A stretch of DNA of 64,000 bases. It comes from Escherichia coli (lineage in GTDB: Bacteria > Pseudomonadota > Gammaproteobacteria > Enterobacterales > Enterobacteriaceae). The stretch lies in assembly GCF_001677475.2 (NCBI RefSeq), contig NZ_CP015229.1. One strand, given 5' to 3'. Positions 14,531 through 15,878 of the stretch are shown piece after piece. The notes beneath the pieces are model-generated. The model searched no databases. It was not told where the DNA came from and saw nothing but the letters and a program-made list of their open reading frames with translations. Within the stretch, counting starts at the first letter, position 1. The number at the start of each line of letters is the position of its first letter. The position numbers and the translations under genes were made by a program.

Positions 14531-15238
14531 ATGCAATCTACTATTAAATCGTTGCCCGCTATTTCGCTTAGCAATATTTACAAGTGTTATGGCGCTGGGG
14601 CAGGAAAGGTTGATGCGCTTAAAAGCATTAATCTTGATATCAATAAAGGCGAATTTCTCGCACTGTGTGGGCCGTCAGGCAGTGGTAAAAGTACTCTGTT
14701 GAATATTCTCTCGGGTATTGATAAACCGACCAGCGGAACGGTGATATTTTTAAATAAATTACTGAACCAACTGCCGGAAGAGCAGTTAGCTGTGATTCGT
14801 GGAAAACATCTGGGTTTTATTTTTCAGTTTTTTAATCTTATGCCGGTATTAAATGTTTTCGATAACGTTTATTTCCCACTGGTGCTTAATGGCCAGTTCA
14901 GTAAAAAAGAAGCCACTGAACGGACGCTGCATTATCTCGATAGCGTCGGATTAAGCGGTTTTGGCGATCGCAAACCTGGGCAATTATCGGGCGGTCAACA
15001 ACAGCGTGTCGCCATCGCCAGGGCACTGGCCCACGAACCGATGGTGGTCATTGCCGATGAACCAACGGGAAATTTAGACCTGGCAACCGGCGAGGCTATT
15101 TTGGACCTGCTGTTGACGATTAATCAGCAGACCGGCACCACATTTGTTATTTCCACGCACTCCAGCGAATTAAAAGCGCGGGCACGGCGAGTGGTTGAAA
15201 TTCAGGATGGAGTATTGATTCATGACTCAGATGCATAA
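14531..15238 (+). CDS. ABC transporter ATP-binding protein (LolD/MacB-like)
   Basis: Walker A GPSGSGKST, signature LSGGQQQRVAIARAL, Walker B VVIADEPTGNLD; start chosen after upstream stop. Confidence 0.85.
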   Translation: MQSTIKSLPAISLSNIYKCYGAGAGKVDALKSINLDINKGEFLALCGPSGSGKSTLLNILSGIDKPTSGTVIFLNKLLNQLPEEQLAVIRGKHLGFIFQFFNLMPVLNVFDNVYFPLVLNGQFSKKEATERTLHYLDSVGLSGFGDRKPGQLSGGQQQRVAIARALAHEPMVVIADEPTGNLDLATGEAILDLLLTINQQTGTTFVISTHSSELKARARRVVEIQDGVLIHDSDA

Positions 15239-15878
15239 AGGATTTTTGTTCATCGGCGTCTTTTTGTATGCGGCATTTTTGGCCCCGAAGATTTACGCGG
15301 CAACTCCCGACGCCGTTAACCAGGTTCTGCAACAAGGGCTTCCGGCGCAGCCTGCCGCGCTGGCGACGCTGACCGAAGCGTTAAAGAAAGAGTATGAAGC
15401 CAGGCACAATGTGGTGGCGCTGGTTTTTTACGCCTATGGCTTACTGCGTCAGGCGGACGGTTATGCGGCAACAAACGATTTTATCCATGCCTCAGAATAC
15501 GCAAAAAGCGGCTTTTTCTGGCTGGATGAAGCGGTGGATTTGCAGGAGAAAAATCAACGCGTACGTTATTTACGTGCCCGCGTAGATGCCTATTTACCCG
15601 CAGATTCAGGGCGTTGCGTGGTGACAGTCCAAGACACCGAGCACATGCTGGCTGACCCGGCGATATGGGCGACAACGATTCGCGACCATATTCTGGCGAT
15701 GCGTTATCGTGCATTACGTCACTGCAAGGACACCACCCGCGCGAATGCGTTGTTGGCGCAAATTAAAGGGCAAAACGCCGCGCTTGCGCAGTCGCTGACG
15801 CAGGATTTTAATGTTGTACCAGAATGGGATAGTGAAGAGTTAACCCAGGTACTGCTGCCGCTGATGAAAGGTGAGTAA
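15222..15878 (+). CDS. Secreted/periplasmic hypothetical protein
   Basis: 218-aa ORF with N-terminal signal peptide (FLFIGVFLYAAFLAPKIYAA); overlaps ABC ATPase end by 17 bp and abuts the permease start. Confidence 0.55.
   Translation: MTQMHKGFLFIGVFLYAAFLAPKIYAATPDAVNQVLQQGLPAQPAALATLTEALKKEYEARHNVVALVFYAYGLLRQADGYAATNDFIHASEYAKSGFFWLDEAVDLQEKNQRVRYLRARVDAYLPADSGRCVVTVQDTEHMLADPAIWATTIRDHILAMRYRALRHCKDTTRANALLAQIKGQNAALAQSLTQDFNVVPEWDSEELTQVLLPLMKGE

Follow-up and report, generated by a model that had tools for sequence, protein, structure and literature searches.

A TPR-like protein encoded between ATPase and permease in a type VII ABC exporter locus of Escherichia coli: a candidate periplasmic partner

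Background

All four type VII ATP-binding cassette (ABC) systems of Escherichia coli K-12 work with a dedicated periplasmic partner, these being EnvC, LolA, MacA-TolC and TesA (PMC12646458). Through such partners these transporters perform mechanical work in the periplasm, and each partner described so far brought a new envelope function with it, in cell division, lipoprotein sorting, efflux or lipid hydrolysis; for TesA, the co-location of its gene together with a predicted interaction gave the first indication, and confirmation came later (PMC12646458). Here we analyze a 64,000-nucleotide stretch of the E. coli contig NZ_CP015229.1 (assembly GCF_001677475.2), referred to below as the window, in which an open reading frame (ORF) for 218 amino acids lies between the genes for an ABC ATPase and its permease. 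An original prediction, made by reading the letters of the window, had described the product as a secreted helical protein and proposed that it may be a periplasmic accessory or substrate-handling factor. The ORF product now appears to be a tetratricopeptide repeat (TPR)-like protein, and we lean toward the view that it serves a type VII ABC lipid exporter as its dedicated periplasmic partner. Positions of all features discussed are collected in Table 1.

Conservation of the ATPase-ORF-permease order

With the permease as bait and one genome per species, 39 loci were retrieved, and the cluster genes were mapped in all of them. The order ATPase-ORF-permease was present in 37 of the 37 genome loci that bear biosynthetic genes, which cover many Enterobacterales (among them Kosakonia, Enterobacter, Leclercia, Klebsiella oxytoca, Serratia, Erwinia, Rahnella, Pantoea and Providencia) and Paraburkholderia. 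In Acinetobacter equi, Neisseria sp. and Aeromonas veronii, which were looked up separately, the three genes stand in this order too, with the 17-nucleotide (nt) overlap and the abutting stop and start codons unchanged. Two metagenomic variants share it as well, with overlaps of 4 to 14 nt and ORF products about 25% identical to the window protein, and the order is kept even where identity to the window protein is only 21-29%. The conservation of the ORF between ATPase and permease genes, which the original prediction had proposed as a check, is thus borne out by the cluster loci and by the Acinetobacter, Neisseria, Aeromonas and metagenomic loci alike. Its remark that such a gene position is unusual also holds, as in none of the four E. 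coli type VII systems described in PMC12646458 does a partner gene lie there.

In the Providencia locus L042, which is represented by one metagenome-assembled genome (MAG), the ATPase, ORF and permease genes are kept, while genes for the LolA-like protein and the 462-amino-acid protein that follow the permease in the window were not found in 21 kb. Two MAG contigs from Deltaproteobacteria, L044 and L045, carry a module of the order ATPase-permease-LolA_like-DUF1302, with neither the ORF nor the biosynthetic genes. The ORF therefore travels with the ABC pair and the biosynthetic pathway, and not with the LolA-like and outer-membrane genes or with a generic module, each of the exceptions coming from a single lineage.

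The same distribution bears on the idea that the ORF product is an assembly factor or pilotin, which would act not on the ABC transporter but in targeting, folding or stabilizing the 462-amino-acid putative outer-membrane protein or another envelope component, comparable to the TPR lipoproteins PilF/PilW and AlgK. TPR scaffolds and pilotins are the proteins that the product most resembles in appearance. The Providencia locus, in its single MAG, has the ORF without the 462-amino-acid gene in 21 kb, and the window protein has no lipobox, which was seen only in two distant family members (P0147 and P0148, see below). We judge this explanation to be quite unlikely.

Several further features of the related loci were observed. 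In L028 (Serratia rubidaea NCTC12971), one of the 37 loci, the aminomethyltransferase gene, the double-ketosynthase gene and the ORF are each split into two, so that the cluster is decaying or, alternatively, its assembly contains sequencing errors. The loci of the Paraburkholderia/Serratia/Erwinia type, here called group 2 (L007, L009 and L027-L049), have an extra gene for a protein of 253-263 amino acids before the ATPase gene, a second short-chain dehydrogenase/reductase (SDR) gene between the permease and LolA-like genes and, in at least one case, acpS at the far end; their TPR-like proteins are 220-266 amino acids long and 21-31% identical to the window protein. The module of L044 and L045 adjoins a gene for a ThiF/nitroreductase fusion and one for a patatin-like phospholipase with a cyclic nucleotide monophosphate (cNMP)-binding domain, and looks like a generic export module in a form without the TPR-like gene.

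Gene anatomy and coding status of the ORF

The product of the ORF is WP_000192884.1, a "hypothetical protein" in the RefSeq annotation produced by the Prokaryotic Genome Annotation Pipeline (PGAP). The ATPase gene ends at 15238 and overlaps the ORF start by 17 nt, and the TAA of the ORF (15876-15878) abuts the permease ATG at 15879. Both our coordinates and the RefSeq annotation agree with the original prediction in the ORF length of 218 amino acids, the overlap and the end at the permease start. In an E. coli chromosome of 99.2% identity, PGAP annotates these three genes with unchanged junctions, and the 2.8 kb around the ORF share 99.2% identity with E. coli O169:H41. A GGAG Shine-Dalgarno sequence sits within the 3' end of the ATPase gene, 9-10 nt 5' of the ORF start, and is kept in the window and in L050, L051, L002, L004 and L005, as distant as Acinetobacter, Neisseria and Aeromonas. 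The overlap of ATPase gene and ORF in relatives is 17, 14 or 4 nt, and the junctions of the ORF in related loci invariably overlap or abut. From this anatomy we infer that ATPase, ORF and permease are translationally coupled. A scan of positions 5000-22000 for promoters and terminators returned sites no more frequently than did shuffled sequence, and nothing notable within the ATPase-ORF-permease stretch, a result that is compatible with a single operon and proves nothing. The composition profile has no sharp boundary at the ORF.

The ORF is a genuine gene under clear purifying selection. Against two relatives with 83% and 73% nucleotide identity, the ratio of non-synonymous to synonymous substitution rates (dN/dS) was 0.11-0.14 for the ORF and 0.04-0.075 for the ATPase, permease and LolA-like genes. 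These values and the conservation described above speak against a chance or non-functional ORF, and this reading was rejected. An out-of-frame extension of the ATPase through the region, which would have undone the original prediction, is ruled out: the ATPase is complete, with positions 3-220 of the 221 in the LolD profile aligned to residues 41-259 of the 264-amino-acid ATPase ORF.

In a set of 5.8 billion proteins, 190 homologues of the ORF product were found at E <= 1e-3, with lengths that mostly fall at 211-218 amino acids. All but one are unnamed or "hypothetical", and the remaining UniRef entry is named "Sel1 repeat family protein", an unconfirmed label. Because searching 1.84 billion cluster representatives with the family profile recovered only 50 clusters at 50% identity, the family appears to be narrow and dedicated. 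It is an unannotated family in an orphan yet widely transferred gene cluster.

Probable export of the ORF product

The N-terminus of the ORF product reads MTQMHK, followed by an uncharged run of 16 residues, P-K-I-Y-A and then A-T-P. It has the features of a signal peptide for the Sec pathway and signal peptidase I (SPase I), namely K6, the uncharged run and a predicted cut between I-Y-A and the following A. These features were scored by rules and not by a predictor of the SignalP type. Among 57 members of the family the n-region is net positive in 56 and a (-3,-1) site follows the uncharged run in 55; the median length of that run is 15 residues. The N-terminal signal peptide of the original prediction is therefore supported as a predicted feature of nearly the whole family (55-56 of 57). 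The N-terminal sequence is weakly conserved across the family, as is typical for signal peptides, and the remainder is well conserved.

Cys132 and Cys168 are invariant in alignment A1. In the 36-sequence alignment A2, both are present in 30 sequences, neither is present in 6, and no sequence has one alone; in most family members they are the sole cysteines of the mature part. This pattern suggests a Cys132-Cys168 disulfide, which would fit periplasmic oxidation. Two distant members, P0147 and P0148, lack the cysteine pair and have a lipobox (ISSC or LSGC at Cys21), which again suggests that the family is located outside the cytoplasm; no L-x-[GAS]-C lipobox motif was found in the window protein. 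Because of the signal-peptide features, the all-or-none cysteine pair and the lipobox variants, the ORF product is very probably exported.

Fold and conserved residues

An AlphaFold2 model of the ORF product, built on a 30-sequence alignment, has 11 helices and no strands, with a mean predicted local distance difference test (pLDDT) score of 88.1 and a predicted template modeling (pTM) score of 0.80; low confidence is limited to the signal region. We are confident that the modeled fold is a TPR-like all-helical solenoid of stacked antiparallel helix pairs, with similarity to solved TPR proteins at the structure level, and the helical character claimed in the original prediction is borne out by it. 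When the model was compared with the PDB by Foldseek, the best match was no better than E 0.075, and the family profile had no significant match among all PDB chains (best E 0.44). In a Pfam scan at E <= 0.1 the only match was DUF7071 (E 0.089, below its cut-off); the TPR and Sel1 repeat models of Pfam did not match, and no NCBIfam family did. The product is thus TPR-like in fold only, with no close solved relative. Neither the Pfam, NCBIfam and PDB sequence searches nor the all-alpha fold indicate homology to EnvC, LolA, membrane-fusion proteins of the HlyD type or TesA, so that the remote-homology check proposed with the original prediction links the product to no known partner class. A membrane-fusion adaptor, considered as a candidate function, is ruled out: the HlyD domain was not found and the fold is wrong.

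Seven residues, D102, R118, R120, D122, R131, D138 and E206, are invariant family-wide. The last of these lies in a C-terminal motif, directly before the permease start, which is conserved among the closer relatives (Table 1). The weakest profile matches, P0165 and P0166 (E about 1e-5), are proteins of 468-529 amino acids with two TPR-like stretches and a C-terminal region starting "DFVLSYQDQLPPQ..."; their kinship with the family is uncertain.

The permease and its extra helix

The genes that flank the ORF have the hallmarks of a type VII ABC system: a LolD/MacB-type ATPase and a permease whose C-terminal domain is of the FtsX kind and whose transmembrane helices TM1 and TM2 are separated by a large periplasmic, LolE/MacB-like domain. 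The ATPase also matches the DevA family TIGR02982 (E 3.5e-55, under the cut-off of that model). The permease departs from the four-helix topology of such systems, since inspection of its sequence predicts five helices, the additional one (TM0) being N-terminal. Positive residues follow TM0, which suggests that this helix is oriented N-out; the permease N-terminus would then be periplasmic. With that orientation, the permease N-terminus would lie near the conserved C-terminus of the ORF product, as if a "TPR-TM0-permease" polypeptide had been split. Among the 50 representative clusters there was no fused form of ORF and permease.

TM0 occurs in every aligned ORF-linked permease, Providencia included, and is missing from the ORF-less deltaproteobacterial permease of L044. 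This distribution would also suit a membrane-anchored regulator or gate, in which an uncleaved N-terminus of the ORF product packs on TM0 and controls ATPase activity or access of the substrate. In Gram-positive bacteria, some FtsEX-type systems have small membrane cofactors. However, the uncharged runs of the family are short, with (-3,-1) motifs in 55 of 57 members; the N-terminus is poorly conserved, as is typical of cleaved signals; and the two lipobox members imply that the N-terminal segment is removed. We regard an anchored regulator as highly improbable.

Predicted docking on the permease

Docking was modeled with a fused single chain, which joined the mature ORF product, a 30-residue glycine-serine (GS) linker and permease residues 66-300, and with 35 locus-paired sequences. 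In this uncontrolled construct the pTM was 0.81 and the mean pLDDT 82.3; the five models were alike, and confidence was low only in the linker and the cut ends of the stalk. From the pTM formula we estimate a value of about 0.5 for a 457-residue chain whose two domains, of 192 and 235 residues, are placed independently of each other. Because the pTM lies at 0.81 against this estimate, the model suggests that the ORF product packs on the periplasmic domain of the permease.

The seven invariant residues could instead make a ligand site, in which case the product would be a free periplasmic binding or holding protein whose solenoid takes up the lipid or polyketide product of the pathway, or its polar head group, and shields or stores it, and not a stable subunit of the transporter. 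The occurrence of the ORF only with biosynthetic genes, and not in the generic ABC/LolA-like/DUF1302 module, suggests a product-specific role of this kind. The invariant charged residues fit a protein interface equally well, however, and most clusters already have a gene for a dedicated LolA-like carrier. TPR-like folds, moreover, mostly bind peptides or proteins and not lipids, and the pTM of the fused model favors stable docking on the permease. A free substrate-holding protein thus seems unlikely.

The reading that we prefer, and hold to be fairly probable, is that the ORF product is a TPR-like protein of the periplasm, a partner dedicated to a type VII ABC lipid exporter. The co-location that marks a type VII partner was observed in the 37 cluster-bearing loci and in the other related loci. 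The role given in the original prediction, that of a periplasmic accessory or substrate-handling factor, has the best support among the readings and is not proven, with permease binding resting on the fused model. The TPR-like fold, the setting in an island of fatty acid synthase (FAS)/polyketide synthase (PKS)-like genes (O-island 47, OI-47) and the extra permease helix TM0 go beyond what had been predicted.

A mechanism can be proposed on this basis. Coupled translation, suggested by the observed anatomy, would make the ATPase, the ORF product and the permease in step. The ORF product would be exported by Sec, lose a 26-residue signal peptide and form the Cys132-Cys168 disulfide, as its sequence and the covariation of the cysteines suggest. 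The TPR-like solenoid would then dock on the periplasmic core domain of the permease, as the gene linkage and the AlphaFold fused model suggest. By analogy with LolCDE and YbbAP, ATPase-driven "mechanotransmission" by the permease would remove from the inner membrane the lipid-like product that the FAS/PKS-like genes specify. More speculatively, the TPR-like partner might receive, shield or hand over this product, which might pass on to the LolA-like carrier and the 462-amino-acid putative outer-membrane protein, where these are present.

A number of points weigh against a dedicated partner. Non-synonymous evolution of the ORF product is about twice as fast as that of its neighbors, which fits a looser role. 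The support for docking is indirect, coming from an artificial fusion and a shallow alignment, with pTM as the read-out of packing. The ORF-less comparison represents one distant lineage (two MAG contigs) and the Providencia case one MAG. Cleavage of the N-terminal segment is a prediction only, and the segment may stay as an uncleaved anchor. The TPR-like fold tells nothing specific about a ligand, and we found no paper or experiment on the ORF protein. It is a more tentative proposal, to which we would give somewhat less than even weight, that the ORF founds a new class of type VII partner and that, with the five-helix permease, the LolA-like carrier and the putative outer-membrane protein, it forms an undescribed trans-envelope export route for a FAS/PKS-derived lipid of the horizontally spread OI-47.

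Downstream genes and the biosynthetic island

The LolA-like protein encoded after the permease matches Pfam PF17131 (E 1.5e-35) and the LolA-superfamily protein NE2245 (PDB 3BUU, E 2.6e-34). The 462-amino-acid gene that follows holds the position of the DUF1302 outer-membrane-type gene in the distant module L044; this position and its signal peptide make the product a putative outer-membrane component. It had no Pfam match and no PDB relative, its BLASTP comparison with the L044 DUF1302 protein was not significant, and hhalign gave a probability of 9% with a short C-terminal alignment. The functions of DUF1302 and DUF1329 are themselves unsettled (bioRxiv 10.1101/2020.07.04.188060). A Pfam scan of the locus proteins found no HlyD-type adaptor.

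Table 1. Positions in the window of the ORF, its sequence features and the surrounding genes.
Feature	Position	Strand	Remarks
Two-partner-secretion exoprotein gene	980-4792	+	Filamentous-haemagglutinin-type
Two-partner-secretion transporter gene	4881-6500	+	ShlB/FhaC-type
Biosynthetic half of operon	6516..14520	+	Same gene order in relatives
acpS	6516-6884	+	
SDR/ketoreductase (KR)	6862-7659	+	
FabZ/ApeI-like dehydratase	7663-8211	+	ApeI-like among precomputed Pfam matches
Acyl carrier protein (ACP)	8233-8514	+	
GcvT-like aminomethyltransferase	8550-9710	+	
Double-ketosynthase (KS) protein	9784-12342	+	852 aa
KS-like protein	12347-13570	+	Third KS
317-aa protein without assigned family	13567-14520	+	
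LolD/MacB/DevA-like ABC ATPase	14531..15238	+	235 aa from PGAP start; longest ORF from 14444, 264 aa
Translational-coupling junction (inferred)	15205..15238	+	GGAG 15209-15212, ORF ATG 15222, ATPase stop 15236-15238
TPR-like protein gene (the ORF)	15222..15878	+	218 aa, ATG to TAA; proposed periplasmic partner of ABC exporter
Predicted Sec signal peptide	15222..15299	+	Residues 1-26, MTQMHKGFLFIGVFLYAAFLAPKIYA; predicted SPase I site after I-Y-A
Codons for Cys132 and Cys168	15615-15617 and 15723-15725 (span 15615..15725)	+	Putative disulfide pair
C-terminal motif PEWDxxExTQVLxPLxKGE	15819..15875	+	Residues 200-218; directly before permease start
FtsX/MacB-type (type VII ABC) permease	15879..17189	+	436 aa, MacB-like periplasmic core domain
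Permease extra N-terminal hydrophobic helix TM0 (predicted)	15879-15965 (permease residues 1-~29)	+	Helix ~5-27, before elbow helix and TM1
LolA_like/TP_0789-like periplasmic lipid-carrier-type protein	17198..17986	+	262 aa
462-aa secreted protein	17983..19371	+	Signal peptide; putative outer-membrane component
FabD-type malonyl-CoA:ACP transacylase	19382-20326	+	
YcdU, polytopic membrane protein	20323-21309	+	Operon end
tRNA-Ser(GGA)	21503-21590	-	After operon end; then ghrA

The ORF lies within a long row of co-directional genes that runs from a two-partner-secretion pair through YcdU (Table 1). This row is the fab-like part of OI-47 of E. coli O157:H7. The island spans z1528-z1556 (PMC8565820), fab genes have been noted within it (PMC3224125), and K-12 retains as a remnant only ymdE, a pseudogene, and ycdU (PMC4951805). 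Seen from the intact island, K-12 ymdE and ycdU are the leftover 3' end, corresponding to the FabD-type transacylase and the last membrane protein; a group 2 homologue of YcdU has a weak LPG_synthase_TM-like match (E 0.0017). None of the papers that we found assigns a product or function to the fab-like genes or to the ORF. One further paper, PMC3686733, was rejected as a literature match, as it covers only the housekeeping gcvT and lolA. The 2.8 kb around the ORF are present in 383 of 5426 complete E. coli genomes (about 7%), once in each. One of the 383 copies is plasmid-borne, as is a homologue in Enterobacter bugandensis, in keeping with a horizontal spread of the island.

The cluster encodes ketosynthases together with a ketoreductase, a dehydratase, an ACP and a malonyltransferase, and no enoyl reductase is recognizable in it. 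Because of this lack, an unsaturated acyl or polyene-type lipid is a reasonable guess for the product. The GcvT-like gene, of the folate-dependent aminomethyltransferase family, is conserved in every related cluster, inside the type II FAS/PKS-like operon, and we found no described pathway in the literature that combines the two.

The ShlB-type gene and acpS directly adjoin in all E. coli-type (group 1) loci in which that flank is visible (L001, L002, L004, L005, L011, L012, L014-L017, L019-L026, L037, L040, L041 and L046), including those of Acinetobacter equi, Neisseria sp. and Aeromonas veronii. The adjacency is absent in the group 2 loci. A linkage this stable across orders suggests that the exoprotein and the lipid pathway are functionally connected.

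If the ORF product is a dedicated partner, it would add a further type, of an unrelated fold, to the partners of type VII ABC systems. It would also give a practical handle on the orphan lipid/polyketide pathway of about 7% of complete E. coli genomes, OI-47 of O157:H7 included, a pathway that extends through Enterobacterales, Paraburkholderia, Acinetobacter, Neisseria and Aeromonas. If the product is a generic scaffold, what is gained is little beyond a well-documented annotation for a "hypothetical protein".

Comparison with known systems

The TPR scaffolds and pilotins come nearest to the ORF product in appearance. AlgK, PelB, BcsC and PgaA are TPR scaffolds of envelope secretion systems. 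In comparison with these proteins and with the pilotins PilF/PilW, the window protein has neither a lipobox nor a TPR or Sel1 sequence match, and the genetic setting of the ORF is an ABC exporter with a lipid-type biosynthetic cluster instead of a pilus or polysaccharide system.

Cyanobacterial DevBCA is a MacB/FtsX-type ABC exporter of polyketide-derived glycolipids that works with the membrane-fusion protein DevB and a TolC-like duct. The present locus is similar in that a MacB/FtsX-type exporter is encoded with PKS/FAS-type genes for a putative envelope lipid, to which it would be dedicated. It differs in having the TPR-like, LolA-like and 462-amino-acid proteins in place of an adaptor of the HlyD type.

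Aryl-polyene (APE) clusters resemble the biosynthetic half of the operon, and their transporter is of the resistance-nodulation-division (RND)/MMPL type. They share with the window the type II FAS-like set of KS pairs, KR, ApeI-like dehydratase and ACP, and have LolA-like export components and no obvious enoyl reductase, as here (PMC8041823; bioRxiv 10.1101/2020.12.19.423268). The GcvT-like aminomethyltransferase, the fused double KS, the ABC exporter and the TPR-like ORF set the window cluster apart, and it is not described in the two APE papers that we found (those just cited).

The L044-type ATPase-FtsX-LolA_like-DUF1302 module has the same order of ATPase, permease and LolA-like genes, with a protein of about 460 amino acids encoded in the same place. 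It lacks the TPR-like ORF, TM0 and the FAS/PKS genes, and its permease is 33% identical to that of the window.

The like case is provided by the partners of the type VII systems themselves, EnvC (FtsEX), LolA (LolCDE), MacA-TolC (MacB) and TesA (YbbAP), each a periplasmic protein that acts with a MacB/FtsX-type permease and is usually encoded nearby (PMC12646458, PMC7668044). The fold of the ORF product is unrelated to theirs, being neither coiled-coil/LytM, LolA barrel, membrane-fusion protein nor SGNH hydrolase. In comparison with the four E. coli systems, only here is the partner gene placed between the ATPase and permease genes (PMC12646458). The operon also encodes a second candidate partner, the LolA-like protein, and binding of the ORF product is at the level of prediction, in which respects the locus likewise differs from the known cases. 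Homologous to none of these partners, the ORF product would nevertheless work most like them.

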